A DNA stretch of 46,872 nt from Dehalococcoidales bacterium (GCA_021161775.1 JAGGZY010000050.1:1-46872), one strand, 5' to 3'. Positions 3,174 to 26,540 are shown, numbered from the stretch's first letter. Translations and numbers: made by a program. Notes: generated by a model from the sequence alone, not told the origin.

Positions 3174-3237
3174 TTGCCATTTGGCTAAGATTTCCGAATT
3201 ATGTTCTATTGACATTTGCCATTTGGCGAATTATAAT
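3174..3237 (+). promoter_or_regulatory. Consensus sigma70 promoter with two palindromic operators
   Basis: TTGACA 3209-3214, 17 bp, TATAAT 3232-3237; TTGCCATTTGGC(T/G)AA at 3174-3188 and 3216-3230. Confidence 0.8.
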
Positions 3238-3243
3238 GTCATT

Positions 3244-3648
3244 ATGGATAGTGGTAAAATACTCAGTTTAGGTGAGATAATCAGACAACAGCGGCTCATG
3301 ATGTCGCTGACTCAGGGGGAATTAGCCAAGAAGTCGGGGGTATCCCCATCGCATTTGGGCCGCATCGAGAAGGGAGAGCGTTTCCCTTCCGCCCGTATCC
3401 TGCGCCGGATTGCGGGACCGCTAGGTTTTGATGAGAATGAGTTATTTGCTCTGGCGGGTTATCTGTCATCCCCTTCCCCGGGTATTGCTGAGGAGGGGGC
3501 TTCCTATGTGGGGGGTGGACGACTTGACCCTTATGTTGGTAAAGTATTATCACAGGAACCAGTTGAGGTGCAGCGGGCAGTAATTGGCGTCCTTAGTCTG
3601 CTAAAGGGTATTGCCAAGGGCATACCTCAGGAGCGGCTTAAAGACTGA
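3244..3648 (+). CDS. XRE-family HTH transcriptional regulator (likely leaderless; start revised from 3181)
   Basis: LTQGELAKKSGVSPSHLGRIEKGERFPS HTH_3 motif; ATG lies 6 nt after the -10 box. Confidence 0.88.
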   Translation: MDSGKILSLGEIIRQQRLMMSLTQGELAKKSGVSPSHLGRIEKGERFPSARILRRIAGPLGFDENELFALAGYLSSPSPGIAEEGASYVGGGRLDPYVGKVLSQEPVEVQRAVIGVLSLLKGIAKGIPQERLKD

Positions 3649-3691
3649 CTACCAGTGGCTTGAGTTATGTCTCTCGGGCTAGGGAGAGAAG

Positions 3692-4381
3692 ATGAAGATT
3701 CTGATTATTGAGGATGACTCGGAGATTGTGGAGGCAGTTTCACTGTGTTTTCAACTGCGTTGGAGTGGGGCTACCGTAATCTCAGCGACTCAGGGGGCTA
3801 AGGGGCTGGACCTGGTTGAAACTGAGACCCCCGATCTGGTTGTTCTGGATATAGGACTCCCCGATATGGACGGCTTTAAGGTTCTCCGTGAGATACGGCA
3901 GTTCTCTCAAGTGCCGGTGATAATGCTGACGGTGAGGGGTGAGGATACTGATGTAGCTAAGGGGCTGGAGCTGGGGGCTGATGACTATATAACCAAGCCC
4001 TTCAGTCATATTGAACTGCTGGCTCGGGTACAGGCAGTGTTGCGTCGTGCCCAGGGGGTGTCAGTTACCGGTGATGAGCGTCCCTTTGTTAGTGGTAAGC
4101 TCTCGGTTGATTTCGCCAGTAGGACGGTCAAGATAAATGGCCAGCCGATAAAGCTTACTTTTACCGAATACCGGCTACTCTACTATCTCATCAAGAATGA
4201 GGGGCGACTGCTTACTCACGAGAATCTGTTAAATAAGGTGTGGGGCGAGGGTTATACTGAAGCCAGAGACCTACTCCGGGTGCATATTCAGCACCTGAGG
4301 CAGAAATTAGGGGATAGCGCTGAATCCCCGAAGATTATCGTTACCGAGCACGGGATGGGCTATAAATTCGTCCGACCTTGA
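3692..4381 (+). CDS. OmpR/PhoB-family response regulator
   Basis: REC domain (IEDD, LDIGLPDMDG, GADDYITKPF) plus winged helix (LTFTEYRLL, LRVHIQHLRQKL, GMGYKF). Confidence 0.95.
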   Translation: MKILIIEDDSEIVEAVSLCFQLRWSGATVISATQGAKGLDLVETETPDLVVLDIGLPDMDGFKVLREIRQFSQVPVIMLTVRGEDTDVAKGLELGADDYITKPFSHIELLARVQAVLRRAQGVSVTGDERPFVSGKLSVDFASRTVKINGQPIKLTFTEYRLLYYLIKNEGRLLTHENLLNKVWGEGYTEARDLLRVHIQHLRQKLGDSAESPKIIVTEHGMGYKFVRP

Positions 4382-4406
4382 GTCCCTGCTGGTGATTTCC
4401 TCCGTT

Positions 4407-4483
4407 TTTATGAAATCTTCACAGAATCTTTACGGAATATTTATTATTTTTATGCCTGCCTTTATACCTGTCTGTTAGATTTA
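4407..4483 (+). promoter_or_regulatory. Promoter with ~11-bp-phased TTTA/TTCA boxes, copy 1
   Basis: Boxes at 4407, 4418, 4429, 4440, 4449, 4461; extended -10 TGtTAGATT ending 4481; 71/77 identical to 5737-5813. Confidence 0.75.
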
Positions 4484-4516
4484 AGCTATAGGATTACTAA
4501 TCGGAGGAATTAGGAA

Positions 4517-5335
4517 ATGGAAAAAATTACAGTTGTTATCTCGGATTGGCAGGTATTCTTCAGGGAAGGGATACACTTCATCCTTTCCAGCGAAGATGAT
4601 ATTGAGGTCATTGGTGAAGCTACCACCAATGAGGAAACTCTGGCTCTCATTGAAGCTGACCCGCCAGCGGTGGCTATTCTAGATATGGGGCATAGCGATG
4701 TCAGTGGTGTTGAGGCAACGCGGCGGATTAAGCGAAACTTCCCCTCAGTAGGGGTAATTTTAATTATTGATGATTATGATGAGGAACAGCTTTTCTTAGC
4801 CGCCAGGGGTGGGGTGAATGCCTACATAACCAAGGAGTCTAGCCCTGATGAGCTGGTTAGTGCTGTTAGGGAGGTAACTCAGGGTAACTGCCCGATAAGT
4901 AAGGTTCTGCTCATTCCTGATATAGCTTCCCGGGTGCTTGATGAATTCCGGGAATTTCCGTTGATGGAAGGGCAGATGAGTAGCCTGCTAGCTCGCCTGT
5001 CGCCAATGGAGAACGAGCTGCTGCATCATCTCACTCAGGGAGCTTCGTCTCAGCAGGTCGCCCAGGTGCTAGATATCGCCGAGCCGGATATTCTCCATCA
5101 CCTCGGAATTATTCTGTCTAAGCTGGTAACTAACCGTCGTAACCTGGAGATGATTGAAACTGCCCAGAGCAGCCTGCGTCCTATCTCCGGGGTGAGTAAG
5201 CCCACTATGGGGTATATAACCAGGGATGAGTTTGCCAGCTTCAAACAGGATTTGATAGCGCGTCTGGAGACCTTTATCAGTCGAATTGAGATGAGTGCCG
5301 GTGGGTTAGCGGGGAGTCGGAATGATAAAGAATAG
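4517..5335 (+). CDS. NarL/LuxR-type response regulator with degenerate motifs and C-terminal extension
   Basis: VVISDWQVFFREGI, ILDMG, AYITK REC domain; LSPMENELLHHL...VAQVLDI LuxR-like HTH. Confidence 0.8.
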   Translation: MEKITVVISDWQVFFREGIHFILSSEDDIEVIGEATTNEETLALIEADPPAVAILDMGHSDVSGVEATRRIKRNFPSVGVILIIDDYDEEQLFLAARGGVNAYITKESSPDELVSAVREVTQGNCPISKVLLIPDIASRVLDEFREFPLMEGQMSSLLARLSPMENELLHHLTQGASSQQVAQVLDIAEPDILHHLGIILSKLVTNRRNLEMIETAQSSLRPISGVSKPTMGYITRDEFASFKQDLIARLETFISRIEMSAGGLAGSRNDKE

Positions 5336-5383: not shown

Positions 5384-5412
5384 CCCTCCCCCATCAAGGG
5401 GGAGGGTTTTTT
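5384..5412 (+). terminator. Rho-independent terminator
   Basis: CCCTCCCCC-ATCAA-GGGGGAGGG followed by TTTTTT. Confidence 0.85.
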
Positions 5413-5581: not shown

Positions 5582-5743
5582 ATGGATAACCAGAGGATGA
5601 GGGTGATGTGTGCCTGGTGTGGTCGGGATATGGGGGCAAAGGATGGGCGGGGTATCACTGGGGTGTCTCATGGCTTGTGTGAACAGTGCCGGCGTAGGTT
5701 AGAGCTGAGTATGAGGGGTAAACTGCCCTCCAATTCTTTATGA
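5582..5743 (+). CDS. Small CxxC/CxxC zinc-finger protein (53 aa, below ORF-track cutoff)
   Basis: MDNQRMRVMCAWCGRDMGAKDGRGITGVSHGLCEQCRRRLELSMRGKLPSNSL; CAWC...SHGLCxxC motif; G-rich RBS upstream. Confidence 0.72.
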   Translation: MDNQRMRVMCAWCGRDMGAKDGRGITGVSHGLCEQCRRRLELSMRGKLPSNSL

Positions 5744-5963: not shown

Positions 5964-6764
5964 ATGAAAAAGGTGGCTACTCGGATAACTTTAATAGTGC
6001 TCCTGGTTATTATTGGGGGTTTTGCTTTTCTGAAACTCTCGCCCAACTACAACATATACCTGGTAAGAAGCGAGAGTATGACCCCTAACCTCAATATGGG
6101 GGATATGGTAATTACTGGCCCTGTCAATGGGCTAATAGGGGGAGAGGTGAAACCGGGAGCAGTTGTAACCTACCAGAGGGAAAAGGGACTGGTTACCCAT
6201 CGGGTGTTGTCAATTAATGGAGATACCCTGGTAACCAAGGGGGATGCCGTTGAGGACCCCGACCCTTGGTCGGTTTCCATGTCGGATATCAGGGGTGTCT
6301 ATCTGTTTCGGCTGCCTTCGATAGGTTACGTATCGAATTTCATTAAGACTAAAACCGGCTGGTTATTATTGATAGTGGCACCATCGGCGGTGCTTTTCGG
6401 ACTGCTAATTAGAAGCATTCTCAAGGAGGTGCGGAAGAAGGCTCAAGATGGGGCTCAGGGGGTGGGGATAGTAACTGCCGAAGCGACTAAGTCAGATGAA
6501 ACCACCCCGCAACCGATTGCGCCCACCGGAGGTTCTGGTAAGGAGGTGGCTTACCCCGCGGCTAGGATGGACAGTTCGGAGATGGTAGCTCAGGGGTTAG
6601 TGATGCTTATCCGGGATATGGTTAAAGATTTACGGAGTAGTCCTGATGTAGTAGCTCAGCAGAAAGGAACCGTGGCTCCAGGTACAGCAGAAGTGGATGA
6701 AACTACGAAGCATCTGGTGGCTGCAATTAAAACTGCGGTAGCTGAACTACGAGGCGGTTATTAA
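5964..6764 (+). CDS. sipW: Signal peptidase I, SipW/S26B type
   Basis: VRSESMTP (Ser), VTHRV (His), TKGD motifs; N- and C-terminal TM segments; upstream of TasA-like genes. Confidence 0.88.
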   Translation: MKKVATRITLIVLLVIIGGFAFLKLSPNYNIYLVRSESMTPNLNMGDMVITGPVNGLIGGEVKPGAVVTYQREKGLVTHRVLSINGDTLVTKGDAVEDPDPWSVSMSDIRGVYLFRLPSIGYVSNFIKTKTGWLLLIVAPSAVLFGLLIRSILKEVRKKAQDGAQGVGIVTAEATKSDETTPQPIAPTGGSGKEVAYPAARMDSSEMVAQGLVMLIRDMVKDLRSSPDVVAQQKGTVAPGTAEVDETTKHLVAAIKTAVAELRGGY

Positions 6765-6885
6765 ATATCAGCTTTAAATAAAGGAGGTGATGACAGTCAT
6801 AACAGAGAATTAGAGAAACTACGCAGCGGGTTGTTAGCTCTTAGGTAACTAACGAACAAAAAACAAAAAATAAAAGGAGAAAGAA

Positions 6886-7506
6886 ATGAACAAAAAGATA
6901 ATGGGATTAGCGGTGGCGGCAGCCCTGGTAGTAGGGCTGGTAGGTAGCGGCACCTGGGCATACTTCTCGGACACGGAGCAGAGCACGGACAACAGTCTTT
7001 GTGCTGGAACCCTAGACCTCAACATTGACGGTGGTAACACTGCCAGTAACACCTTCTCGGTAACCGATGTTGCCCCTGGTGACAGTGGTAACGGTAACAA
7101 TGTGCTGGCTAATGTAGGTAGCCTGAATGGTGAGCTGGATGTTGAGTTTTCAGCGATTACCAACACTGGTGGAACCAGTGGTGAGTATGGGGATGGTAGT
7201 GGAGACCTGGGTGGAGTAGCTGAGATAGCGGTGTATCTGGATGTTGACCAGAGTGGTACTTGGACGGATGGAGACATTGGGCTTAAGTCTGATGGTACTA
7301 CCTACAATCATCCAACAGCTCTGGACTACGACACTATCGACAACTATGACAGTGAGAGCTGGGATGCGGTTGAGACAATGGCGGCATCAGCGGCTGATGA
7401 CTTTGTGGCTCTGTGGCGAGTGCCTACTTCAGCGGGGAACAATATTCAGGGTGATTGCGTAAGCTTTGATGTTACCTTCATTCTGGAACAAGCCGACGCT
7501 GACTAG
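6886..7506 (+). CDS. TasA/CalY-family major fibre subunit
   Basis: SipW-type signal GTWA|YFSDTE, AGTLDLNI, APGDSG, NVGSL, NNIQGD; strong RBS AAGGAG. Confidence 0.88.
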   Translation: MNKKIMGLAVAAALVVGLVGSGTWAYFSDTEQSTDNSLCAGTLDLNIDGGNTASNTFSVTDVAPGDSGNGNNVLANVGSLNGELDVEFSAITNTGGTSGEYGDGSGDLGGVAEIAVYLDVDQSGTWTDGDIGLKSDGTTYNHPTALDYDTIDNYDSESWDAVETMAASAADDFVALWRVPTSAGNNIQGDCVSFDVTFILEQADAD

Positions 7507-7542
7507 TAGTTGGTGAGAGCAGAACTAACGGTTAAAGTTTAT

Positions 7543-7576
7543 CGGGGGCTGGGGCCTGGATAAGCCTCAGTCCCCG
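7543..7576 (+). other. Stable hairpin after tasA (mRNA stabiliser or partial terminator)
   Basis: CGGGGGCTGGGGC-N8-GCCTCAGTCCCCG, 13-bp stem with 2 G-U pairs, no U-tract. Confidence 0.55.
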
Positions 7577-7610
7577 GGGACAAAAAATCATTGATAAATA
7601 GGTAAAGGAG

Positions 7611-8624
7611 GTGCCGATAATGAAGAAAGCCCTGCTTCTGCTAGGGGTAATTCTAGGCTCACTACTGAGTGTAGTGGGCACTGGCACCTATGCCTATTTA
7701 AGCGATACCGAAATCTCGGTGAATAACAGTTTGACAGCCTGGGTGGAAGAGACAGCTAAGTTCTTTGTCACCGACGATAGTAGCTGTCCGGATAAGGTGT
7801 TTAAGTATGACGAATCAGGTACCTTTGTGAGTACTTTTGACCTTCCCGCGGGTGATATGAAGCCTTACGGGATGGCGGTGGTGGATAATGATGTTTATGT
7901 CCTTACCCGAAAGGATAAGCAGGTGTATCACTACACCAGCTCCGGGGAACTGGTGGAGATTTCTCGGGTATTACGAGATTCTGCCGGGGGTGGGCTGTGC
8001 CATCCTTCGGGTCTGGCAGTTGATGGTAATGATATGTGGCTGGTAGAGGAAAGTGGCAGCCTGTGTCGCTACTCGCTATCAGCAGCATTCCCCGATGACG
8101 GTAATCCCCTTAATGCGGCTCAGGAGATTAGCCTTTACTATATTAATGACGATGCCAGTGGCTTAGCTATTGATGATAATTATCTCTATGTATTGGATGG
8201 CTGGTTTAAGCGGTTCTTTAAGTATCCTCGCGCTGGATATCCTAAAGGTATCCCTCAGGAAATCCTCTCCATAGAGTCGGAACTAGAAGGGTCCCAGCAG
8301 CCGATGGTAAATCTGAATAAGACAGACTCCGAGACAGGGTTCGTAGAAAGACTCGCTCCTCAGCAGGTGGACCCTCAAAAGTCAGCGGTAAAGAAATTTG
8401 CCAAGCTGGGGTTGGTCTCCAGGGAGTTAAGGCAGGTCAACGGGAAAAAGCTGGGTCAGCCTACCGGGGCAATGTTGGATGATAGCTCAATGTGGGTGGT
8501 AGATAAAACTAAGGTGAAGGTATTTGAGTATGATGTGAGCCAGTTGTTCTCGGGGTTTGGCAGAATAAACGCTGAATGGGAATTCGACCTTGAGCATGAT
8601 AATCATAAACCGGAGGGTATCTAA
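7611..8624 (+). CDS. SipW-signal protein with NHL/YncE-like beta-propeller (probable start ATG 7620)
   Basis: GTYA|YLSDTE signal; repeats PYGMAV...VYV, PSGLAVDG..MW, ASGLAID..LYV, PTGAML..MWVVD. Confidence 0.75.
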   Translation: MPIMKKALLLLGVILGSLLSVVGTGTYAYLSDTEISVNNSLTAWVEETAKFFVTDDSSCPDKVFKYDESGTFVSTFDLPAGDMKPYGMAVVDNDVYVLTRKDKQVYHYTSSGELVEISRVLRDSAGGGLCHPSGLAVDGNDMWLVEESGSLCRYSLSAAFPDDGNPLNAAQEISLYYINDDASGLAIDDNYLYVLDGWFKRFFKYPRAGYPKGIPQEILSIESELEGSQQPMVNLNKTDSETGFVERLAPQQVDPQKSAVKKFAKLGLVSRELRQVNGKKLGQPTGAMLDDSSMWVVDKTKVKVFEYDVSQLFSGFGRINAEWEFDLEHDNHKPEGI

Positions 8625-8648
8625 ATTTGGGATAGATATTAAACGATT

Positions 8649-9755
8649 ATGACTGGAGTAAAGAAGAAAAAATTAACCAGGCGGATGCCGGGATGGTTGA
8701 TGATAACCCTGCTGGTAGCTGTTGGGGCTGGAGCGGCAGCCGGTATCATTTTCGCCGGTGATATTGCTGGTGAGATACCGGTAGCGGTAAGCCCGGCGCT
8801 CGCCATTCGGGAGGCTAGCTGGTATGGTGCTGGGGTACTGCCTTCAGTAGTGCCGATTACGATACACGACATCGGGGTTAGTGCCCCTGACCGTGAGTTG
8901 GCTCAGGTTAATGATAATGGCACCGAGTTTGGTGCTGCTGCCGAGATAAACAGCGGTGACCAGATTGCCCTTAAGCTGTATATTGAGAATCATAGTGACC
9001 AGGCAATGCCGGGTAAGCTGGAGCTGGCGGCTCCTTCAGGATTGACCCTGGAGGTCTATGCCCCGGCGGTCTCCGTTATTAAGCAAGTAACTCGCCTTAA
9101 GGCAGATAGCTGGATGTTTACTATTCCGGGGAACACTACCGGCATAGGAGCGAATTTCGTCACTGTGGTTATTGCGGCTAACGATACCCTGACCTCCTTT
9201 TCGACTATTTCGGGTAAATTAACCCCCTTTACCGGTCACGCTGGTTTCAGCGGGAGCAGCTTGGACCTAGACCTTAATATTGATGGTGGGGATGTGGCAG
9301 TAACCACCTTCTCAGCGTCCAATATGGTCCCCGGTGACAGTGGCTATGGTCGCAGTGAGCTGTCCAATGTGGGAACACTGGACGGGGTGCTGGATGTTGC
9401 CTTTTCGGCGATTACCAATACTGGCGGAACCAGTGGTGAGTATGGGGATGGTAGTGGAGACCTGGGTGGAGTTGCCGAGATAGCGGTATATCTGGATGTT
9501 GACCAGAGTGGCGATTGGACGGCAGGCGATATTGGGCTTAAGTCTGATGGTACTACCTACAGTCACCCGACGGCTCTTAACTACGATACTATCAATAGTT
9601 ATGACAGAGAGAGCTGGGATGATGTTGAACCGTTGCTAGTAGCCGCAGCGGATGACTTTGTGGCTCTGTGGCGGGTGCCTACCTCAGTGGGGAATGACAT
9701 TCAGGGTGACTGTGTAAGCTTCGATGTTACCTTCACCCTGAGACAGTCGCCTTAG
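8649..9755 (+). CDS. Membrane-anchored protein with C-terminal TasA-like domain
   Basis: Basic N-terminus plus one TM helix; C-terminal ~160 aa highly similar to the 6886..7506 product. Confidence 0.78.
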   Translation: MTGVKKKKLTRRMPGWLMITLLVAVGAGAAAGIIFAGDIAGEIPVAVSPALAIREASWYGAGVLPSVVPITIHDIGVSAPDRELAQVNDNGTEFGAAAEINSGDQIALKLYIENHSDQAMPGKLELAAPSGLTLEVYAPAVSVIKQVTRLKADSWMFTIPGNTTGIGANFVTVVIAANDTLTSFSTISGKLTPFTGHAGFSGSSLDLDLNIDGGDVAVTTFSASNMVPGDSGYGRSELSNVGTLDGVLDVAFSAITNTGGTSGEYGDGSGDLGGVAEIAVYLDVDQSGDWTAGDIGLKSDGTTYSHPTALNYDTINSYDRESWDDVEPLLVAAADDFVALWRVPTSVGNDIQGDCVSFDVTFTLRQSP

Positions 9756-9768
9756 ATTTGGTAATTCC

Positions 9769-9981
9769 TCAGCTAAATACGGCGGTGATTACTGCCTCTT
9801 TCGGATTATGCTCATCAAAGAAGGTAACCACCAGCTTCCTCCCCGGGGTCATTGCCGACTCCGGCAGGTTTCTGGCTACAGTAATATCCTCCAGATAAGC
9901 CTGGTGGCTGCCAGTTAACTGAATGGTTGCCTTATAATCAGTAGCGTTGAATCTCTTCAGTGTCGCTTTGCTTAGTCTCAT
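9769..9981 (-). CDS. Small phage-cluster protein, last gene of the structural operon
   Basis: GGAGG RBS; beta-rich 70 aa protein coupled to the upstream gene. Confidence 0.65.
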   Translation of the reverse strand: MRLSKATLKRFNATDYKATIQLTGSHQAYLEDITVARNLPESAMTPGRKLVVTFFDEHNPKEAVITAVFS

Positions 9982-11996
9982 CTGACCCTCCTTATACTCT
10001 TCCCAGGGCTAGCCTCGCCTCGTATTTTCCACGGCGGGGGTGATAAACCAAATCCAGCCCGAGGACCCTCCTTATTCTCACCATTAAGCCCGGCGCGGCT
10101 ATCGGTCAGTTCAATAACATCGTATAGCTGCTGACCGCAGTTGGGTGGGGTGTGGATAATACCCCCGCTGGAGGCTATCTCGGCTTGTCTTAGATATACC
10201 TCTCCTCGTTGCTGAGCTTGGGACACGCCGTTGATATTCCGGTCCTCAAGCTGGCGTAATCTATCATAGAGTCGGTTTATCTCATCCCAAGAGAAGGAGT
10301 CAACTATCATCGGCTTATCGTTTACCGGGTCATAGCCCTCGACCTGAACCCGATTAAGCTCCCAGCCCCCCTTTAGGTATCTCCCTTCAACTATGGGGTG
10401 GGATGAGCCATAGGAGTAAACCGAGTTGTCATTGGGGAGGGGGTTTACCACATAGGCTTTACTGCCCTCAATAAATATTACATCGGGGACGAAGGAGAGC
10501 AGCTTGCTGATGACAGCGTCTCCTCGGCTCCCCGGGGGAATGGTAAAATCGGGATAGTAGCTATCCAGAACCGATGACTGGGATTTAATCTCCAGCTTCA
10601 GTCCACATCTTGCCAGCACTAGAGCCAGGATGTCCTTGACACTCATCTCATCGGAGTCTTTATTCCAGCGGAACTGACAGCGGGCGCGCCAGTGTTTAAT
10701 CAGGCTCCAGCCGTCGGAGGCATATAGAATCAGACTGGCGATACCCCCGGCGCTGGTATGCTCACTGGCATCAATCCAGAACTCGGCGCCCGGGCTAACC
10801 TCGTTGCCCCCGGAGGTAACATAGCCGGGGCTGAACTGAAGCTCACTGCCGAGAGCTAGAGCTTTAAGGGAGCCTTCTCCCGGTGAGGAGTACTGCCCGT
10901 CGCTGTTATTTAGCTCAACCGTCAGCCAGCTCTCTCTTTGGCTGAGCTCCTGTCTTACCCTTAATATATCGGCGGTTAGATCGAGGCTCTCGGCGGTGAG
11001 CTTTGCTCTCCATACCCCGCTGGGGTTGGCTAGCCAGTCGTAGTTACCGTGATAGGCGATGGCTAGCCCGTACTCACTGGATAGGTTAAATGGCACCGGC
11101 TCATGCCACCGATTATCAGCGAAATCGGTGTCGGGGATAGTATATGACCAGAAGGGGCGGCTATAGGCTTCGGTGCCGCTAAATTTCTCGATAAAGAAAC
11201 CACGGTAGACATCGGGTTTAGCCAGAAAGGCGTGATGATACTCAAAGCCGCTGTCCGACGGTGCTGAAGCCAGCGGAGTTAGCTCTGACCAACTACCGGT
11301 GGGGCTCGCTCCACCATCACCATAGATGAGGGACCATAGTTTGAAGTTGCCGGCGGTGTCCTTACCGGTAATAAACAGATTCCAGTCGCCATCATAGACG
11401 GTTGCCACCCCGGACAGGTCACCGGTGGTCTTATCCCAGGCGATTTTATTCTGCCAGCTACCGTTTAGATACTGCTTAACATAGAGAGTGCTTTGGTCAG
11501 CGAAAAATAGCGCCAGAGAGCCGTTGGGCTGGTAGGCGGCGGTGATACCATAGATAGCTGATGTCGGGGAATAGTCGATAAGCTCGGGGGACCCCCAGCT
11601 AGCGCCGTAGTCGGTGCTTTTTGACTGGTAAATCTGCCGGGTTCTTTTTATCCAGAAGATGCTGACCTCAGCCCCCAGCGAGCAGCTGGTGGTAGTGACG
11701 ACATCATACTGATTGTGATATACCCACTGGCTAAAGTCTGCCCCCGGGCCGGGGTTAACCACCCGTTGTCGATAAAGCTTTCGGGAGTCGGCAGGTGGGG
11801 TAACCCTTACCCTGATGAGAGAGCCATCACCGGGGATAGTCAGGCTATGAAAATAGTCTGCCTCAGTGCCGGCATACAGCCTTTCCCAGTTTAAGCGGGT
11901 AATATTAGCCAGCCGACTTTTGGCTTTGATATTGACATAGGGGGTATAACTGGCTTCCTGTTGGGCGGTGAGTAGTGATGGTGATAGGCTTCTCAA
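9978..11996 (-). CDS. Large tail/spike-like protein (Asp-box propeller N-terminus, hub-like C-terminus); probable frameshift near 10075
   Basis: STDYGASW Asp-box; position in virion operon; an alternative frame gives RRVLGLDLVYHPRRGKYEARLALGRV with stop at 9992-9994. Confidence 0.6.
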   Translation of the reverse strand: MRSLSPSLLTAQQEASYTPYVNIKAKSRLANITRLNWERLYAGTEADYFHSLTIPGDGSLIRVRVTPPADSRKLYRQRVVNPGPGADFSQWVYHNQYDVVTTTSCSLGAEVSIFWIKRTRQIYQSKSTDYGASWGSPELIDYSPTSAIYGITAAYQPNGSLALFFADQSTLYVKQYLNGSWQNKIAWDKTTGDLSGVATVYDGDWNLFITGKDTAGNFKLWSLIYGDGGASPTGSWSELTPLASAPSDSGFEYHHAFLAKPDVYRGFFIEKFSGTEAYSRPFWSYTIPDTDFADNRWHEPVPFNLSSEYGLAIAYHGNYDWLANPSGVWRAKLTAESLDLTADILRVRQELSQRESWLTVELNNSDGQYSSPGEGSLKALALGSELQFSPGYVTSGGNEVSPGAEFWIDASEHTSAGGIASLILYASDGWSLIKHWRARCQFRWNKDSDEMSVKDILALVLARCGLKLEIKSQSSVLDSYYPDFTIPPGSRGDAVISKLLSFVPDVIFIEGSKAYVVNPLPNDNSVYSYGSSHPIVEGRYLKGGWELNRVQVEGYDPVNDKPMIVDSFSWDEINRLYDRLRQLEDRNINGVSQAQQRGEVYLRQAEIASSGGIIHTPPNCGQQLYDVIELTDSRAGLNGENKEGPRAGFGLSPPPWKIRGEASPGKSIRRVR

Positions 11997-12009
11997 ATTA
12001 AACCTCCTT

Positions 12010-12204
12010 TCAGCTCCCTGTCTGCCCTGGCACCCAGGGCGTTCCCCAGAAAAGATGTCCTAGCAGGATACCGAGGGCAACGCTTAGCATAATCCAGATA
12101 AGTGGCTGACGGTGGTAGCAGTCCCGGATAATATAGGTCCAGGGGCGGCCGCCTACCCGGGACCACAGGGCTTTGTACAATTGAGAGAGTCGAGCTCGCT
12201 TCAT
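12010..12204 (-). CDS. Small membrane protein (holin-like)
   Basis: Single TM segment (LIWIMLSVALGILLGHLFW); TAATG overlap with the upstream ORF. Confidence 0.55.
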   Translation of the reverse strand: MKRARLSQLYKALWSRVGGRPWTYIIRDCYHRQPLIWIMLSVALGILLGHLFWGTPWVPGQTGS

Positions 12205-12395
12205 TACTTCTCCTTAAACCGTTTAATTGCCCTCTCGCCGAAGTATTCGATAATGACGGCACTGATTAGCCAGCTAAGCGGTTGGGGAATTACTACCCCC
12301 TTCATTACACAAAAGCCATAAATGATGCATCCCCAGACGATAATAAATGGCCTGACGATGCTTTTTACAAACGTTATTCGCTCGTTTAGGGTCAA
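12204..12395 (-). CDS. Two-TM holin-like protein
   Basis: 63 aa, two hydrophobic helices, basic C-terminus YFGERAIKRFKEK. Confidence 0.6.
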   Translation of the reverse strand: MTLNERITFVKSIVRPFIIVWGCIIYGFCVMKGVVIPQPLSWLISAVIIEYFGERAIKRFKEK

Positions 12396-12413
12396 TTTTC
12401 CCGCCTCTCCTGG

Positions 12414-13004
12414 TTAATCGATAAACAGCTGATGATCTCTGAGCTGTTGCCTTCGTCCCAACCGCTTCAGGCTATCCCTGAAGGCGGTGAGTCTTTCTTC
12501 CCCCCAGCTTCGGTACTGGTCGGCGGTCATCTCTCCCCCGACATTTACCCGGTTAATGCTGGCGACAGCCTGGCTGATAACCGCGTAGCCGCAGGCCCCG
12601 GTAACTACTAAATCCTCATACTTAGTGGGGACAGTAGAACTGTTAGTGTCAATAGTGTGGAGCACTCCGTAGTAGATACGGCAGTTAGTGCCGTTGGGGG
12701 TATCGCCACTGATTATAACCAGGACATCCCCCCAGATAGAGAAACGCTGGTACTGGGTGGGGAAGGCACCCAGGGGGTATTCTACGGCTTGAACCATAAT
12801 CCGCTCAGTCAGACTGGAGATATCCACGGCTCGGGAGGTGCTTATGGTGGGTAGTATAGCCTCGGCGGGTAGGGGGGTTCTCTCCGATAGTTCCCTCAAG
12901 GCGTGGTTAATATGTCGGGTTAGTTCATCATCTGACCACTGGTAGGGGGTAATCTCATCCTTAAGGTTGTTCCTGACCATGGTTATCATCTCCGATAGAT
13001 TCAC
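12414..13004 (-). CDS. Phage head-tail adaptor-like protein
   Basis: N-terminus VRNNLKD...WSDDELTRHINHALRELS resembles podovirus-type adaptors; downstream of capsid. Confidence 0.65.
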   Translation of the reverse strand: MNLSEMITMVRNNLKDEITPYQWSDDELTRHINHALRELSERTPLPAEAILPTISTSRAVDISSLTERIMVQAVEYPLGAFPTQYQRFSIWGDVLVIISGDTPNGTNCRIYYGVLHTIDTNSSTVPTKYEDLVVTGACGYAVISQAVASINRVNVGGEMTADQYRSWGEERLTAFRDSLKRLGRRQQLRDHQLFID

Positions 13005-14062
13005 TGCTTTACCTCCTTAGACGGCATTCCGGTTTTCCCGGTGCCTTTGGGCAGTTTCATATCGCTGGTGCCGGCTCGGGCGGCGATTTTAGCCCTGAGT
13101 CGGTCTAAACCCAGGCTGGCTTCACCAGCCACGATTAGGCTTAGTAGGGCAGCGATAGCCTCACTCCTGTAACTGCTGTCGGCGACCAGGGAGAATCGGG
13201 ATAAACTGGCTATATCCAGGCTTGAACCAACATCAATAAGGGGTATTTCTCGGCTTAATAGCTCCTCAATATCGCTACCAGCTTCGGCTAAGGTAATACC
13301 CCGGTTCTTCAAACTCTCTACCCCCGCCTTTAGAGGAATGTTGCCCGTAGTCCAGAGAGCCCCGTGAATTATGCCGTCATTATGATTATCTGTCTCATCA
13401 TAGGCAGTAGAACCCGAGCCTTCATTCATTAACCATAAGCCTACCGTATTAGCATCCTTAGGGAATTGCCTACCCACTCCATTATTCCAGTTAGCGGCTA
13501 TTTCAGCGGGGGTTCTGGGCGTGTCAGAGATACGAACCTGAGAAATGAGGCCGTTGACCGTATAGCCAGTGCTCCCAATATACCAATGTCCAGAATGTAT
13601 CAAGTCGGTGTTATCTCTCTCCACAGTAGATTTTAGAAATCCATTTAGATACAACCTTGCTTTATCGTGGTCGTAAGTAGATGCAAAATACACCCATTGG
13701 TTCTTGAGTAAATCATTCTCATAAATTCTTGGACGAGGCGCACTCCCTTGTGTAGTCGTTATCTTCCATTCTAAGTCGGTGTTATATTTAGAGTAGAATA
13801 AGACATTTCTATCGTCATTTGTCCAAACAAAACGCATATAATCCTTTGACATTTCTGATGGCAAATAGGGAATTTTTACCCACACCTCAATCGTAATCGC
13901 ATCAGTGATGTCCAAAGAGGGGTTATTGCCACAATCTATATAGTCATCTACCCCATCAAAGCTAAGGGCAGAACCATAGCCTTCTCTAACTATGAGGTCT
14001 CGGTCGAGAATTGCCTCTATCCCCTCACTTCCGCTATCGCTGGTTTGTATATCAGTACTCAT
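13001..14062 (-). CDS. LamG/concanavalin-like domain virion protein
   Basis: ALSFDGVDDYIDCG, ITIEVWVK, WVYFASTYD, LYLNG, GLISQVRIS, VGLWLMNEGSG. Confidence 0.85.
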   Translation of the reverse strand: MSTDIQTSDSGSEGIEAILDRDLIVREGYGSALSFDGVDDYIDCGNNPSLDITDAITIEVWVKIPYLPSEMSKDYMRFVWTNDDRNVLFYSKYNTDLEWKITTTQGSAPRPRIYENDLLKNQWVYFASTYDHDKARLYLNGFLKSTVERDNTDLIHSGHWYIGSTGYTVNGLISQVRISDTPRTPAEIAANWNNGVGRQFPKDANTVGLWLMNEGSGSTAYDETDNHNDGIIHGALWTTGNIPLKAGVESLKNRGITLAEAGSDIEELLSREIPLIDVGSSLDIASLSRFSLVADSSYRSEAIAALLSLIVAGEASLGLDRLRAKIAARAGTSDMKLPKGTGKTGMPSKEVKQ

Positions 14063-14080
14063 CGTTTTCTTCCCTCGTCC

Positions 14081-14106
14081 CCGGGGGTAGTCAAAGCTAC
14101 CCCCGG
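14081..14106. other. Perfect 10-bp hairpin inside the virion operon
   Basis: CCGGGGGTAG-TCAAAG-CTACCCCCGG. Confidence 0.6.
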
Positions 14107-14115
14107 TTAGGATTC

Positions 14116-14631
14116 TCAGCTTAGGGTTATGGATACCTCCAAGGTCCAGGTACCTGAGGTTTTGGTGCCCAAATTCTCTACCTTACGGTTGAGACAGATA
14201 GAGCTAGTTGATTGTTTGACCACCCATTCGTTCCAGGTATAGTTGGCGTCATCTGAGCCAAAGCTGGCTTTAAAGGTTGCCTGCTGTGATGTTGATGTGG
14301 GGTAGTTGGCCTCCATACCCTTATAGGTTTTGTTAGTTGCGGCTTGCAGGTCGGTTTGGGTAGCCTCGGCGGCGGTGCTACTGTCACCGACCCCGATTTG
14401 AGCGTGGGGGTTATCGTAGATATGGTCGGCCCCAGAGACTACCCCGGTAATAAGGTCCCACATCTCGTCAATTCCGGAGTTTAGCAGGCAGTTGTGTTCC
14501 CCCTCTATCACCTCATAGGGCTCAAACTGCTGGTGAAACTCGCCCTCCCGGCTCTGGTAAGGCTTAATGTCCTCGTGATATTTGCTGAGCCGATAGTGGC
14601 AATACCAGTTGGCGTGTTCTCTATTTTCCAT
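14116..14631 (-). CDS. Phage structural protein (tail-collar/fibre N-terminal-like)
   Basis: IGVGDSSTAAEATQTDLQ...FGSDDANYTWNEW...LNRKV; directly after capsid. Confidence 0.55.
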   Translation of the reverse strand: MENREHANWYCHYRLSKYHEDIKPYQSREGEFHQQFEPYEVIEGEHNCLLNSGIDEMWDLITGVVSGADHIYDNPHAQIGVGDSSTAAEATQTDLQAATNKTYKGMEANYPTSTSQQATFKASFGSDDANYTWNEWVVKQSTSSICLNRKVENLGTKTSGTWTLEVSITLS

Positions 14632-14652
14632 TCTTTCATCTCCTGTGTCGAG

Positions 14653-15576
14653 TTAATCGGTAATCCCGATTAGGGCGGCTGCCTTAATCGCGGAGAATAG
14701 GGCCAGTGAGCAATACCACTTAATTCGAGTTCGGGAGGCGTCCTTGGTTTCCAGTGAGCCGATAGGCTCTACCTGCAGGTATCCTGGACTGGTTAAGCCA
14801 CAGAGGGCTCCTTCTCCGAACTGGACGGCATAAATGGTGGAGCAACTGCCGCCGGTGGTAGCTGTCTCTAGGCTGGAATCGAGGGTATGGGTATCCAGAA
14901 TCCAGTCATTGACTCCGACGGGAATACTGTCCCATAACTGGACAAAGTTACCGAAGCTGTCTTTTTCGGTTACCATCATTCCTGAGCCTGAGGCTCGGAC
15001 GAGGTTATTAATCTTCCTCCGGGTGCGGCGGCTCATCAGGAGTATATCGGGTTTACCCCCCTTTACGGCGTCAATAAGCTCATCTAGCTTATCCAGGGTG
15101 AGAGTAGCTCCGGTAGCCCCCATCGCGATTACCTGACTGCTTGCGGTGGTGGTATCAATTAGCTTCCTAAGGCCATCAAACTGCTTGGCATTGACGGCGG
15201 GGTCTCCATAGATAACCGTCTCCTCGAATTTGTCCTTGAGTGCCTTTGCCTTAAGTTCAATGACCGCCGCTTCCAGGTCCTGGATATTAGAGCGGGTTGC
15301 CTTGAGGAAATTATCAATATCGGCGTCACCGCCCATAATCTTTAGGGTAGTGGTTACCTGTTCAAAGGTTGGGGTTGACTCGTTCCAGGGGTCGCCAACA
15401 TCGTAGAAATCAATCGAGGGCAGGGTGTTCTCCTGGTTATAGGTTAATCCATTACCCACAATCTCAATAAAGGGGAGTTTCTGCAGTATCGGTGAGTTCT
15501 TGATGATGGTTTCCACGACTCCCTGAAGGAGCATATTATTAGATAGTTTGGATGCCTCGTTTAGTGTTAGTGCCAT
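14653..15576 (-). CDS. Major capsid protein (HK97-fold)
   Basis: ETIIKNSPILQKLPFIE...IYGD...FDGL...LDELIDAV...RIKWYCSLA; follows portal and scaffold. Confidence 0.85.
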   Translation of the reverse strand: MALTLNEASKLSNNMLLQGVVETIIKNSPILQKLPFIEIVGNGLTYNQENTLPSIDFYDVGDPWNESTPTFEQVTTTLKIMGGDADIDNFLKATRSNIQDLEAAVIELKAKALKDKFEETVIYGDPAVNAKQFDGLRKLIDTTTASSQVIAMGATGATLTLDKLDELIDAVKGGKPDILLMSRRTRRKINNLVRASGSGMMVTEKDSFGNFVQLWDSIPVGVNDWILDTHTLDSSLETATTGGSCSTIYAVQFGEGALCGLTSPGYLQVEPIGSLETKDASRTRIKWYCSLALFSAIKAAALIGITD

Positions 15577-16047
15577 TTATTTATCACCTCCTATGGCGTA
15601 TCGAATCTTCTGTCGTGGTGACAGGGATGAGTGGTCAAGTGGTGTTCGTGGTGGAGCCCCGGCAGGAATCCGGGTAGCTTGAATTTCAGTCTCCAGGCTC
15701 TGTCTCACTTGGCTAATCATGCCTTTAGCCTGCCTCAGTGACTCGTTGATAGCCGGGATGCTGTCGCCGGTGATAAGCTCCGCTGGCACCTCAGGGTTGG
15801 TCTGCATTACCATTGTTCGGTAGTTGACTAACGCCTCGCCTAGGGAATTATCTGCCGTCTTGAGTTTTTCGGTTGACTCGGTGAGCCTCTGTTCCAACTC
15901 AGTAATGTGGCTATTGGCTTGGGTCAGCTCCTCATTCTGCTGAGCTACCTGGCCCTCAAGCTTGGCAATTTGGGATGCCAGGCTCTCTTCAGTCTCGGTA
16001 TTTTCAGGAACTGGGTCTTGATGTTGCTTTATCTTGTCATCGGTCAA
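15577..16047 (-). CDS. Capsid scaffolding protein
   Basis: Coiled-coil, acidic N-terminus, C-terminal IPAGAPPR...LSPRQKI; lies between portal and capsid. Confidence 0.7.
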   Translation of the reverse strand: MTDDKIKQHQDPVPENTETEESLASQIAKLEGQVAQQNEELTQANSHITELEQRLTESTEKLKTADNSLGEALVNYRTMVMQTNPEVPAELITGDSIPAINESLRQAKGMISQVRQSLETEIQATRIPAGAPPRTPLDHSSLSPRQKIRYAIGGDK

Positions 16048-16085
16048 TGGTCGTCCTCCTCTAGGTTATTTTCTAATACCCGCAG

Positions 16086-17453
16086 CTAGGATTGGTTAGC
16101 TCTCCCTCTCGCTTCATTCCGAGCCGGTTTGGTATTAAGCTCCTTGTTCATGCTGAGGATAATCTGGCGTTCCTCAAGCCAGCGGTTAAATTCTGCCTCA
16201 GGGTCTTTAACCCCGACCTCATCCATAGCGCGTCGTCTGGAGTGGACACCGTTCTGAATCAAGGTCTGCTCGTTGGCTACTAGCCGCTCCTTGTCCTGGG
16301 GCAGGAGCGGTCCCCAGACTACTCGCAGATGGTTATTACCGAAGTTCTCATGATGGTATTTTTCGAGGAGTTTGAGGATTAGCCGGTTTCGCTGGTTGTA
16401 GGCGGCACTGCGGATAAGACGCTTCCGTTTTACCTTCTGTAGCAGGGGCTGAAGCTCAAGCTCAAGGGCTACCCCGGACAGGTTCTTCTCGGTACCACCG
16501 AAAGCAGAGCGGGGTGACTCTGAGATGTCATGCAGGGTCCGATAGAGCAGGTTGAGGTAATCGATATGTAGCCCGACACCACCCCCTTGAAGCAGGTCTA
16601 GCAGATAGGCTTTAGCATCCTCAGGTATATTCCAGACTGCCCCTGGCTTAACCGCGATATCCTCAGATTCCTCGATGTTCTCCAGTACGGCGATAGGGTT
16701 ACCCGATAGCTCTAGTATTCTTGATAGCTGGCTCATTGCCCGGTTAAACTCACGCTGGGGCGGTATTAGCTGGCGCAAATCCGACATTCCCCAGAATTTT
16801 TTAGGCTCCCTCAGATTAGGATAGATAATAAACGGGATAAATCCGTAGGGATTAGGCTTACTGGTTACCAGATTGTTATCTATCCAGAGCTCAAACCCCT
16901 CGGTGGTCCATAACTCGGTAATCTCAGCGGTTTTCCCCTTGGGGGTTACCTTATACAGGATTTCGGTTTCGTCTGAGGTCAGCCGATATTTAGAGGCGAC
17001 CCGCCATAGTCTGGAGGTGTCGTCCCCCACCCACCAGGTGTGGATGCCCTGGATATCGGGGGCAGTAATCCTGACCCGTTTGGTCGCCGCGTCCCAGATA
17101 ACCTTAAAGCAGGCATCTCCCAGGAGGGCACAGTCAATCTCGGTCTCAAAATCAAGTTGTTCTAGATTGTTGTCTTCGTATACCTGGTATAATGCCTGCT
17201 CAGCCCGCTGCGCCCTGGCTCTAGCCTCATCGGAGTCATCGATGGGGTCAACAGCAAAGGTTACTCCTGACATCAGATATGAGGTAAGCTTATCGATAAT
17301 TACCTTGGCATAGTTAAAGACCAGGCGTTTCTCACCTCGCCGGGGATAACCCTCCCACTGCTGACCGTGGTAGAAATCAAGCAGTTCCTGATAACCCTTG
17401 AGCCGACTCAGGTCGTGGTGATTTAGCTGTGCTGGAGTAAAACCTTCATTCAT
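16086..17453 (-). CDS. Phage portal protein (SPP1 Gp6-like)
   Basis: FYHGQQW, NYAKVIIDK, NPYGFIPFI, WGMSDL, NLSGVAL motifs. Confidence 0.9.
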   Translation of the reverse strand: MNEGFTPAQLNHHDLSRLKGYQELLDFYHGQQWEGYPRRGEKRLVFNYAKVIIDKLTSYLMSGVTFAVDPIDDSDEARARAQRAEQALYQVYEDNNLEQLDFETEIDCALLGDACFKVIWDAATKRVRITAPDIQGIHTWWVGDDTSRLWRVASKYRLTSDETEILYKVTPKGKTAEITELWTTEGFELWIDNNLVTSKPNPYGFIPFIIYPNLREPKKFWGMSDLRQLIPPQREFNRAMSQLSRILELSGNPIAVLENIEESEDIAVKPGAVWNIPEDAKAYLLDLLQGGGVGLHIDYLNLLYRTLHDISESPRSAFGGTEKNLSGVALELELQPLLQKVKRKRLIRSAAYNQRNRLILKLLEKYHHENFGNNHLRVVWGPLLPQDKERLVANEQTLIQNGVHSRRRAMDEVGVKDPEAEFNRWLEERQIILSMNKELNTKPARNEARGRANQS

Positions 17454-17733
17454 GGCTAACCTTCTTTAATGCCCTCTGCACAGTTCGTTGACTAACGCCA
17501 AACAGTAGGGCTAGCTCCTTTATTTTTCTTCCCTTGACATATAGCTCTAATATTTCCCTATCCCGCAGCTTTCTAAGGTAGCGTTGCTTACCTCCGGGCT
17601 CGTCATAGATACACCTCTCGAAAGGGCAGTTGAGACAGGAATTGGCGAACTCACAACCGTTATCATGGTAGTGGCAATACTCTGGCGGTAGGTCTAGTTC
17701 ATCGGAGCTCACTATCAAATCCTTAGTTCTCAT
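17446..17733 (-). CDS. Cys-rich plus HTH regulator heading the virion operon (start revised from 17802)
   Basis: C-x6-C-x5-CxxC-x4-C cluster, then RDREILEL...KELALLFGVSQRTVQRAL HTH; GGTGA RBS before ATG 17733. Confidence 0.75.
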   Translation of the reverse strand: MRTKDLIVSSDELDLPPEYCHYHDNGCEFANSCLNCPFERCIYDEPGGKQRYLRKLRDREILELYVKGRKIKELALLFGVSQRTVQRALKKVSHE

Positions 17734-17768
17734 ATCTATCTCACCCGAAGGGATGGTCAGGATGTTAG

Positions 17769-17786
17769 AATAGCACATATGTTCTA
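17769..17786 (-). promoter_or_regulatory. LexA-like box over extended -10 promoter of the virion operon
   Basis: Minus strand TAGAAC-ATAT-GTGCTATT followed by TGcTATTCT -10; 17/18 identical to 26541-26558. Confidence 0.72.
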
Positions 17787-17837
17787 ATATAATCAATAGC
17801 ATTTTGTCATCATCTTAGGGGATGGCTATCGGCATTC

Positions 17838-24712: not shown

Positions 24713-24819
24713 GGCTATTATGTCGGCGAAAAGGAAGCTAATTAATAGTAATTAGCTTCCTTTGGCGTTTCGTGGTGAGTATTGGGTGGCGGCTTTAACC
24801 AGCAGTGCCAGGCTCATCA
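24713..24819 (+). repeat. Degenerate direct repeat, right copy (relic of IPT gene end plus terL end)
   Basis: Aligns with 21805-21912 at roughly 80% by eye. Confidence 0.85.
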
Positions 24820-26122: not shown

Positions 26123-26132
26123 TATTTGCCTG

Positions 26133-26501: not shown

Positions 26502-26540
26502 CTTGGTGCTGACTCCTGAACTGGCTAGCTGGAATTTCAT

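Follow-up and report, generated by a model that had tools for sequence, protein, structure and literature searches.

Introduction

In the TasA fibre of Bacillus subtilis, residues 28-38 of each subunit form a donor strand, residues 39-47 an extension and residues 48-61 a strand that complements the groove of its own monomer, and the donor strand touches both the next subunit and the one beyond it (Böhning et al., PMC9674648). A TasA subunit extends its own strand only once its groove has been filled, and the N-terminus of TapA resembles a donor strand and is predicted to complement TasA (PMC9674648). In haloarchaeal tafi, TafC is the proposed tip and its N-terminal donor strand activates the next subunit, TafA is the core subunit, TafE an adapter and TafD a peptidase, and the membrane protein TafF carries a jelly-roll domain that 'finalises' the chain and holds it in place; the assignments of TafC and TafF rest on AlphaFold models (PMC11821415, PMC12337348). 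AbpX-like loci combine a signal peptidase with minor subunits, anchors and predicted tip proteins, homologues occur in Chloroflexota and two-component regulators lie nearby (bioRxiv 10.64898/2026.01.04.697558), while in the archaeal bundling pili AbpB is suggested to give the first strand, with distal domains as possible adhesins like FimH (PMC9245690). Published work on haloarchaeal tafi, TasA/TapA and AbpX-like loci already contains the logic of tip, shaft and anchor. Here we describe four genes at positions 5964-9755 of a 46,872-nucleotide (nt) stretch from a Dehalococcoidales bacterium (GCA_021161775.1, JAGGZY010000050.1:1-46872; the whole stretch is called the window below) that probably form an operon for a donor-strand fibre of the TasA type in which tip and base are defined.

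An original prediction, made from the DNA alone, had singled out these genes as a pilus locus with dedicated base and tip subunits. The novelty that it assumed is smaller than thought, roles of this kind being already filled in print by TafC and TafF of tafi and by TapA of Bacillus. The new element is the architecture of the fourth protein, P4, in which an N-terminal hydrophobic segment and an immunoglobulin (Ig)-like domain precede a C-terminal, groove-only TasA body; a literature search did not find this build, nor did it find a TasA-type fibre of Dehalococcoidia, although figures or supplements of the AbpX preprint may show such loci.

Results

Domain make-up of the encoded proteins

Calling of open reading frames (ORFs) on the window gave four in this interval, all on the plus strand and separated, in order, by 121, 104 and 24 nt. 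These encode a SipW-like signal peptidase I of archaeal/ER type (ORF1, 5964..6764, 266 amino acids (aa)), a full TasA-family shaft subunit (P2, 6886..7506, 206 aa), a protein with a donor strand only (P3, 7611..8624, 337 aa counted from a GTG codon) and a protein with an acceptor groove only (P4, 8649..9755, 368 aa). The window is contig C15 of a genome (G000) of 933,879 bases in 55 contigs that is rated 98.9% complete; other G and L codes denote related genomes and loci.

P2 matches PF12389 ('Peptidase_M73') over residues 3-204 of 206 with 59.6 bits (cut-off 22.5) and the SipW-type signal family TIGR04088 with 37.4 bits (cut-off 19), and its start is preceded by a strong ribosome site. The signal (residues 1-25, 6886-6960) is followed by the donor strand and linker YFSDTEQSTDNSLCAG (residues 26-41, 6961-7008) and by the body (residues 42-206, 7009-7503). 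The search for homologues yielded 548 at E<=1e-5, with names that include 'TasA family protein [Chloroflexota bacterium]'. P2 was combined with 29 relatives into a profile, which matched the solved B. subtilis TasA monomer 5of1 (E 3e-9) and the TasA fibre form 8aur (E 5.3e-9), in both cases over positions 28-203, and residues F27, D29, S33, G41 and L45 are invariant across the 30 aligned sequences. In the profile alignment the donor, extension and self-complementing segments of TasA fall at about residues 26-36, 37-45 and 46-59 of P2. P2 is predicted to form fibres by donor-strand exchange. A metalloprotease ('camelysin') reading of PF12389 was set aside, the locus being explained by the strand logic and the matches to solved TasA.

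Another complete TasA subunit, of 225 aa and 77% identical to P2, is encoded on contig C1 (775-1452, minus strand; locus L002), where it stands alone between a Mg-chelatase/ComM-like gene and uvrA, and it bears a 19-residue proline-rich C-terminal extension that P2 is without. An acidic loop, YLDVDQSGxWTxGD, is present in the TasA bodies of both P2 (7230-7265, residues about 116-127) and P4 (9486-9521); it has the look of a calcium-binding motif, a resemblance only, and in the donor strands mature positions 4 and 6 are occupied by D/E. Calcium sites formed partly by a donor-strand glutamate are described for AbpX (bioRxiv 10.64898/2026.01.04.697558).

The likeness of P3 to P2 is confined to about the first 43 residues of P3, within which residues 4-43 are identical to P2 residues 1-40 at 19 of 40 positions, spanning signal and strand YLSDTEISVNNSLTA. 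P3 scores 20.2 bits with TIGR04088 (cut-off 19) and shows a weak NHL repeat; no TapA-type match was obtained in the family scans, and the structure model is a beta-propeller. The true start is likely ATG 7620, which has a better ribosome site, AAAGGAGG, than GTG 7611. A SipW-type signal (residues 1-28) leads into the donor strand and linker YLSDTEISVNNSLTAWVE (residues 29-46, 7695-7748) and an NHL-like propeller (residues 51-326) with a low-confidence insertion at about residues 213-268 that is missing from homologues. In the model, built from an alignment of 9 sequences (mean predicted local distance difference test score (pLDDT) 80.2, predicted template-modelling score (pTM) 0.75), residues 1-30 are helical, corresponding to the signal, and residues 23-45 have pLDDT <50, so that the strand lies outside the propeller fold. 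Foldseek with this model returned NHL and YWTD propellers, the top match being the NHL domain 8j72_A (E 1.4e-10, TMq 0.46, TMt 0.54). Given how the TasA segments map onto P2, P3 consists of strand and extension followed by none of the TasA body.

P4 gave no match in the family scans, PF12389 giving none at E<=0.01. Its residues 207-367 nevertheless align gaplessly to P2 residues 43-203 with 125 of 161 positions (78%) identical (E 5e-89), and a custom TasA-body hidden Markov model (HMM) matches the same residues (E 6e-67), no donor motif being present in P4. Because the homology begins at P2 residue 43, P4 is without the donor strand and retains the rest of the body, including the self-complementing strand. 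A basic N-terminus is followed by one hydrophobic segment (residues 13-37, 8685-8759; 13-31 by hydropathy, helix 15-30 in the model), a conserved stretch (residues 38-50, 8760-8798), an Ig-like beta-sandwich (residues 51-193, 8799-9227), a disordered linker (residues 194-206, 9228-9266) and the TasA body without donor strand (residues 207-368, 9267-9752); the ATG has no obvious ribosome site upstream. MAFFT repeatedly overlaid the N-terminal domain (N-domain) and the TasA-type domain, and divergent rows were therefore left out of the alignment of 58 sequences used for modelling. The resulting model (mean pLDDT 77.6, pTM 0.53) comprises the helix, a low-confidence coil at residues 31-50, the beta-sandwich at block means of 85-97, linker residues 196-203 at pLDDT <50 and then a strand-rich body at 205-366, with no sign of the linker filling the groove in cis.

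The P2 and P4 copies are also close at the DNA level: 7011-7349 and 9266-9604 run at a constant offset with 83-88% identity. In L035 and L039 the P4-type bodies share 45-47% protein identity with their own neighbouring TasA as against the 78% found here, and for this reason the P4 body of the window appears to have been overwritten by the P2 body fairly recently. The converted tract stops at the TLDL codons just past the strand, and the acceptor-only build was therefore preserved. The idea that anchor and shaft generally evolve in concert was rejected, the high identity being confined to this genome.

Predicted docking of the P3 strand

The complex run combined P4(195-368), P2(26-206) and P3(29-62), with P3 as the scored partner. 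A score of 0.69 (runs of 0.71, 0.66 and 0.69) was obtained as against 0.26 for the best of three controls, with at least 92% contact agreement between runs and a partner pLDDT of at least 64; the score mark for complexes is reached by 116 of 157 solved complexes and by 2 of 215 mismatched pairs, a calibration that holds only roughly for a run of this design. In the prediction P3 residues 29-46 lie on P2 residues 53-63 and 187-202, the former being the neighbour of the self-complementing strand and the latter the final strand of the body, and make a few contacts on P4 (227-228, 264-265 and 345-352). Since the TasA donor strand reaches two successive subunits, these minor contacts fit a P3-P2-P4 chain.

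The signal peptidase

ORF1 matches TIGR02228, the archaeal-type signal peptidase I, with 72.3 bits (cut-off 51.85), and the Bacillus SipW equivalog NF046067 with 60.7 bits, below the cut-off of 190; it would work like SipW yet is not classed as a SipW orthologue. Residues S36, S38, M39, P41, H79, R80, D94 and D100 are invariant among 12 SipW-like sequences from this and related loci, and S38 (in SxSMxP), H79 and D94/D100 presumably have the catalytic roles generally known for the peptidase family. Two hydrophobic segments are present. A custom HMM run over 2,413 ORFs identified ORF1 as the sole SipW-type gene of the genome, and one LepB-like peptidase is encoded on contig C6. Behind the second hydrophobic segment ORF1 has a C-terminal tail of ~100 residues (residues about 161-266, window 6444-6761) that is missing from the 155-176-aa peptidases of most relatives; those of L035, L036, L037 and L039 have N-terminal extensions in place of such a tail.

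The original prediction had named a SipW gene, a full TasA-like subunit and a SipW signal plus first TasA strand fused to a beta-propeller, and all three are borne out by the family matches, with the model and Foldseek agreeing for P3. It had taken the donor-only propeller for a terminal adhesin: the strand is disordered in the protein's own model and docks into P2 in the predicted complex, in agreement with donation by the propeller protein, and adhesion is a putative function. Its membrane-anchored TasA body lacking the first strand stands as regards the strandless body and a single hydrophobic segment at the N-terminus; retention of P4 as an anchor is a likelihood to which the relatives speak.

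Conservation of the four roles in relatives

Custom HMMs for the TasA body, the P4 N-domain, the P3 propeller and SipW, together with a strand motif, were run over the 2,413 ORFs of at least 60 aa in the genome. Proteins with signal and strand number exactly three (P2, the C1 paralogue and P3), as do TasA bodies (P2, the C1 paralogue and P4), and P3 is the sole donor-only and P4 the sole acceptor-only protein. Across 61 related genomes P4 as query had matches in 9, G000 included, which outside G000 involved the TasA-body part only, and P3 had matches in 5, with the propeller matched only in G003 (48% identity) and G005 (45%).

In G005 the gene order is SipW (163 aa), TasA (360 aa), the P3 homologue (289 aa) and a 543-aa protein in which an ordinary signal ending in ...VQA is followed at once by a TasA body (ADPVDLVLGGG...), a C-terminal hydrophobic helix and a basic tail; its CARDB (Ig-like) match is weak and sub-threshold (E 0.0017, 18.9 bits, cut-off 22.7). 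G004 and G014 encode a histidine kinase, a response regulator, SipW, two TasA proteins, a 786-aa protein with strand and Kelch propeller and an anchor of 533/534 aa that has the same build as the 543-aa protein. G051 has two SipW and three TasA genes, a 370-aa donor-only protein and a 526-aa anchor, and donor-only proteins of 487, 527 and >423 aa are encoded in G052, G025 and G028, respectively.

Scanning one genome for each species yielded 191 pattern matches, with 35 relatives confirmed and 31 loci obtained. The nearest of these loci belong to Dehalococcoidales, Dehalococcoidia or Dehalococcoidaceae. Within the class the TasA family is patchy: of 301 genomes sampled at a completeness of at least 80%, 25 have it. 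Roles were assigned by HMM in 42 sources, L029 and L041 being one contig. Acceptor-only proteins with a late hydrophobic helix were found in 10 of these (7 of Dehalococcoidia type and 3 Methanomassiliicoccales archaea) and the P4 architecture in 3 (the window, L035 and L039). From their gene content all three P4-type loci hold all four roles, the order in L035 and L039 being P4-like protein, SipW, TasA, second TasA and a 461-aa donor-only protein. C-terminal-helix anchors are absent from all 3 P4-type loci, and P4-type genes from all 10 sources with an anchor of that kind; that the two replace each other is the main argument for P4 as the base. The four roles thus recur in relatives with tip domains swapped.

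A second widespread donor-only family, in which the strand is followed by a domain that starts W..QTT..DF and ends ...Y.QW.ATL...V..Y, was seen in L029/L041, L030, L035, L039 and L060, its members measuring 461-527 aa in Dehalococcoidia, with one of 1650 aa in Methanolobus.

No sortase (PF04203) was found in the 98.9%-complete genome, three control genomes being positive, and neither a penicillin-binding protein (PBP) transpeptidase (PF00905) nor a SEDS protein (PF01098), ten control genomes being positive for each. No LPXTG motif is visible at the C-termini of P2, P3 and P4. The genome has one Mur-ligase-type match, which may be a folylpolyglutamate synthase. Dehalococcoides, for its part, lacks peptidoglycan. 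The original prediction of a self-contained, sortase-free polar pilus in a lineage probably lacking peptidoglycan agrees well with these results, with the asymmetry of donor and acceptor proteins and with the nearest loci lying in Dehalococcoidia. Its assignment of P4 as the membrane anchor is strengthened by the groove-only body and by the clear C-terminal helices of the relatives' anchors, and for P4 itself membrane retention is the probable rather than the observed state.

The N-domain of P4

A word-indexed search with P4 residues 1-206 gave two proteins only, while an exhaustive profile search with the N-domain gave 368 representative clusters at E<=0.001 (232 at 1e-10 and 64 at 1e-30). 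Among the best 150 of the 368 representatives the domain is at the protein N-terminus in nearly all, 77 are single-domain proteins of 165-235 aa and others have DUF11, PKD or further domains behind it. Four of the 150 (P0179, P0187, P0198 and P0212) have the P4 build, with an N-domain, an 8-14-residue linker and a TasA body without donor motif, and are 38-47% identical to P4 over its full length; P0179 is the protein encoded in L035 (body 100% identical).

The most conserved part of the family is the segment G26-L51 (P4 numbering), not the sandwich, with 65-98% conservation in 55 sequences, and it comprises GAGAAxG followed by G41, V47, Q49 and A50; at position 49 the family has Q and P4 has P. 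The motif could be placed in 107 of the 150 representatives, in which the uncharged N-terminal stretch has a median of 26 residues, the N-terminal tail is at least 20 residues long in 13 members, and another hydrophobic 19-mer occurs in 3 and in none of the remaining 104. These figures fit an N-terminal signal-anchor and make retention of P4 in the membrane a reasonably good, if not a safe, expectation. Kinship of the N-domain family with TasA was rejected at an hhalign probability of 0.9%, as was a DUF1102 identity for the N-terminal part of P4, a lead from a language-model look-up for which no Pfam match was obtained even at E up to 10.

The genome encodes six N-domain proteins (P4, one on contig C22 and four on contig C54). 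The five paralogues other than P4 are of 188-556 aa (C54 about 9433-17820 and C22 1563-2159; loci L033 and L034). The four on C54 are clustered with an OmpR-type regulator and small winged-helix-like proteins, and a 636-aa protein of this cluster has a C-terminus like that of the 556-aa DUF11-repeat paralogue.

Genomic setting

Upstream of the locus (3181..5335) lie genes, all on the plus strand, for an HTH-XRE protein (3181-3648), an OmpR-type response regulator (3692-4381) and a LuxR-type response regulator (4517-5335). OmpR-type regulators also adjoin the fibre loci of G004, G014 and G025 and, as noted, the N-domain paralogues on C54. A hairpin scan located a terminator-like hairpin on the plus strand at 5384..5406 (9 pairs, 8 of them G-C, with a T-run), which ends the upstream regulator genes and leaves a leader of ~560 nt 5' of sipW; within 5964-9755 no hairpin of comparable strength was found. 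A promoter scan was uninformative, giving 4 sites as against 6.0 expected from shuffles. The 628-nt interval between the LuxR-type regulator and sipW contains a 53-aa Cys-rich ORF (5582-5743, plus strand; CxWCG...HGxCxxC) with no match in the rest of the genome or in the related loci compared.

The gene 3' of P4 is convergent and 13 nt away. Phage-like head genes lie directly downstream of the fibre genes on the minus strand (9769-17802 and 24752-26540) and encode a portal (PHROG 64, E 1.5e-43), a major head protein (PHROG 212, E 3.8e-72), an SU10-type adaptor, a Laminin_G_3 structural protein and a 672-aa protein without family match. Small and large terminase genes lie ~7 kb from the head genes, with host-like genes for two TIG-domain proteins, an acetyl-CoA synthetase and an acetate channel between them; tail tube and integrase were not seen in the region, which may represent the remains of a prophage or an element resembling a gene transfer agent; the genome measures 0.93 Mb. 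The window also encodes an Actinobacteria/Chloroflexi-type VLRF1 protein.

Discussion

Proposed assembly

The domain make-up of the four proteins, the free strand of P3, its predicted docking on P2 and the conservation of the four roles suggest how such a fibre could be assembled. All four proteins would be exported through the cell membrane, and the SipW-like peptidase would cut the special signal of P2 and P3, baring an N-terminal strand (YFSDTE... and YLSDTE..., respectively). P3 can only donate, because it has the strand and the TasA body is missing; its strand would plug the first P2, the part that TapA plays towards TasA in Bacillus and that is proposed for TafC in tafi. The filled P2 groove would free the strand of that P2 for the next P2, and because the strand freed in this way enters the next subunit the shaft would grow at its cell-proximal end. 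P4, with a body and no strand, would take the last free strand and end the chain, most likely held in the membrane by its N-terminal hydrophobic segment with the Ig-like domain as a stalk. The expected product is a fibre with P4 at the base, a shaft of P2, perhaps with the C1 paralogue, and the P3 propeller at the tip, for which neither sortase nor cell wall would be needed.

Several points weigh against this assembly. The local P4 copy looks like the product of a recent conversion event, its function being assumed. Foldseek with the two-domain P4 model gave only tandem beta-sandwich matches (TM 0.16-0.25), and VIA-align over ~48,000 chains gave generic sandwich folds for both halves at a best Z of 8.1; the VIA-align matches were Ig, macroglobulin, CUB and jelly-roll folds, and the absence of TasA among the 50 matches listed does not argue against a TasA fold. 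Custom alignments, three chains and a shortened P3 set the complex run apart from the tool's calibration, which for that reason applies only roughly, and the run may have passed because the solved TasA fibre (8aur) was known to the tool, showing likeness and not binding. Donation of the P2 strand into P4 and adhesion by the P3 propeller are putative steps. Residues G28, A29, A30, G32, G41, V47 and position 49 of the N-domain are conserved at 89-98% in the 55 family members, a pattern that would suit a processing site and a functional N-terminal strand at least as well as an anchor. Finally, the uncharged stretch in the signal of P2 is about as long, and that signal is presumably removed, by analogy with TasA; because the two look similar in length cleavage can be envisaged for P4 as well.

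Alternative explanations

Such cleavage is the basis of an unlikely alternative, in which P4 is no membrane anchor: its signal would be removed to expose a functional N-terminus, GDIAGEIPVAVSPAL, and the protein would be a secreted terminator or a connector to N-domain surface proteins. The near-invariance of the GAGAAxG...VSQAL segment in 55 family members speaks for a functional N-terminus, the modelled 16-residue helix (15-30) is followed by low-confidence coil (31-50), and the N-terminal position of the domain in nearly all 150 listed representatives is that of pilin-like families. The language-model look-up placed the N-terminal part of P4 near archaeal hypothetical proteins and a DUF1102 cluster (0.91-0.93), a lead only, and DUF1102 proteins are discussed as tafi-like subunits (PMC11821415). 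The failure of the N-domain to match either the TasA profile or DUF1102 speaks against this alternative. Moreover, 104 of the 107 placed family members would be left without any hydrophobic helix, and the long uncharged stretch and the 13 long tails are unusual for cleaved signals. The mutual replacement of P4-type genes and C-terminal-helix anchors is likewise better explained by a membrane-held P4. The connector idea can be taken further, to P4-type proteins linking two surface systems: the N-domain family would then be a second, hitherto undescribed, processed, strand-linked or lattice-forming envelope family of wall-less Dehalococcoidia, with P4 grafting the TasA fibre and its exchangeable propeller tips onto this coat. 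This extension is rather improbable; were it true, the fibre would be part of the envelope architecture and not a simple membrane-tethered pilus.

It is also conceivable, if very improbable, that the fibre is shed into a biofilm matrix as in Bacillus, with P3 as a TapA-like nucleator only, its propeller non-adhesive, and P4 as a minor or redundant by-product of a recent P2-body duplication. TapA is indeed described as a nucleator, most of which is dispensable (PMC9674648), and the recent conversion of the P4 body (83-88% DNA identity here as against 45-47% protein identity in L035 and L039) is what a duplication by-product might look like. However, the P4 build is intact at <50% identity in at least five clusters and three species genomes, always strandless, and related loci commonly encode acceptor-only proteins with membrane helices. 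Donor-only proteins with large and varied outward domains (the present propeller, a Kelch propeller, the domains of the 461-527-aa proteins and that of the 1650-aa protein) would be unexpected of proteins that serve only as nucleators. The idea that P4 is a membrane chaperone like ElrE was set aside, since ElrE donates a strand and P4 offers a groove. The membrane-held base, strand-exchanging shaft and propeller tip remain the preferred arrangement.

Implications

Dehalococcoidia have no cell wall from which appendages could be hung, and the literature search brought up no paper on surface fibres in this class. The locus is a four-gene kit with one clear role per protein (processing, shaft, strand-only tip and groove-only base) and as such a clean system for asking how chaperone-free donor-strand fibres start, stop and stay cell-bound, a question that is open for TasA, Abp and Tafi. 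The swapped tip domains of the relatives suggest a general way of displaying adhesins on such fibres, and the fibre, should it be confirmed, could have a part in attaching these organisms to minerals or partner cells.

Comparison with known systems

In type 1 pili the tip, FimH, is an acceptor-only subunit, the reverse of the polarity proposed here. The chaperone-usher type 1 and P pili and the Enterococcus Elr WxL pilus (bioRxiv 10.64898/2026.10.17.759780) share with this locus a linear donor-strand polymer with tip, shaft and base and modular tips; their folds and machinery are unrelated, and in the accounts available a chaperone is needed, together with an usher or a sortase. The archaeal bundling pili AbpA/AbpB of Pyrobaculum (PMC9245690) are closer in being TasA-related, envelope-anchored donor-strand filaments, although their sequences are very distant and the account cited describes no dedicated peptidase in the operon and defines no acceptor-only anchor. 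The AbpX-like loci differ in that the P2 profile matches TasA far better (E 3e-9 as against 0.019-0.029), in that the bacterial anchors named in the preprint are S-layer homology (SLH) and LPXTG wall anchors and not membrane helices, and in that the peptidase described there has ten helices, whereas ORF1 has two hydrophobic segments.

The tapA-sipW-tasA operon of B. subtilis resembles the present locus in the adjoining genes for an ER/archaeal-type signal peptidase and a PF12389 subunit with an N-terminal donor strand, and TapA, like P3, is a second secreted protein with a TasA-like donor strand that is able to start the chain. Differences lie in the outward domain, which is a beta-sandwich in TapA and an NHL-like propeller in P3; in the absence from B. 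subtilis of an acceptor-only membrane protein, TapA being said to anchor to the wall; and in the host, here without matches to peptidoglycan machinery, and the peptidase, here below the SipW equivalog cut-off. Likened by proposed roles, as far as these are described for it, haloarchaeal tafi would correspond in its strand-bearing tip with an outward domain, core subunit, terminal membrane protein and locus-encoded peptidase. Tafi subunits carry Tat signals, whereas P2 and P3 have N-terminal lysines, no RR motif and a SipW-type Sec signal; tafi has only a distant link to TasA, the host here is a bacterium and no TafE-type adapter is evident in the locus. The membrane helices of TafF are C-terminal, as in the anchors of the relatives and unlike the N-terminal segment of P4. 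The P4 architecture would add a second, independently built form of base protein.

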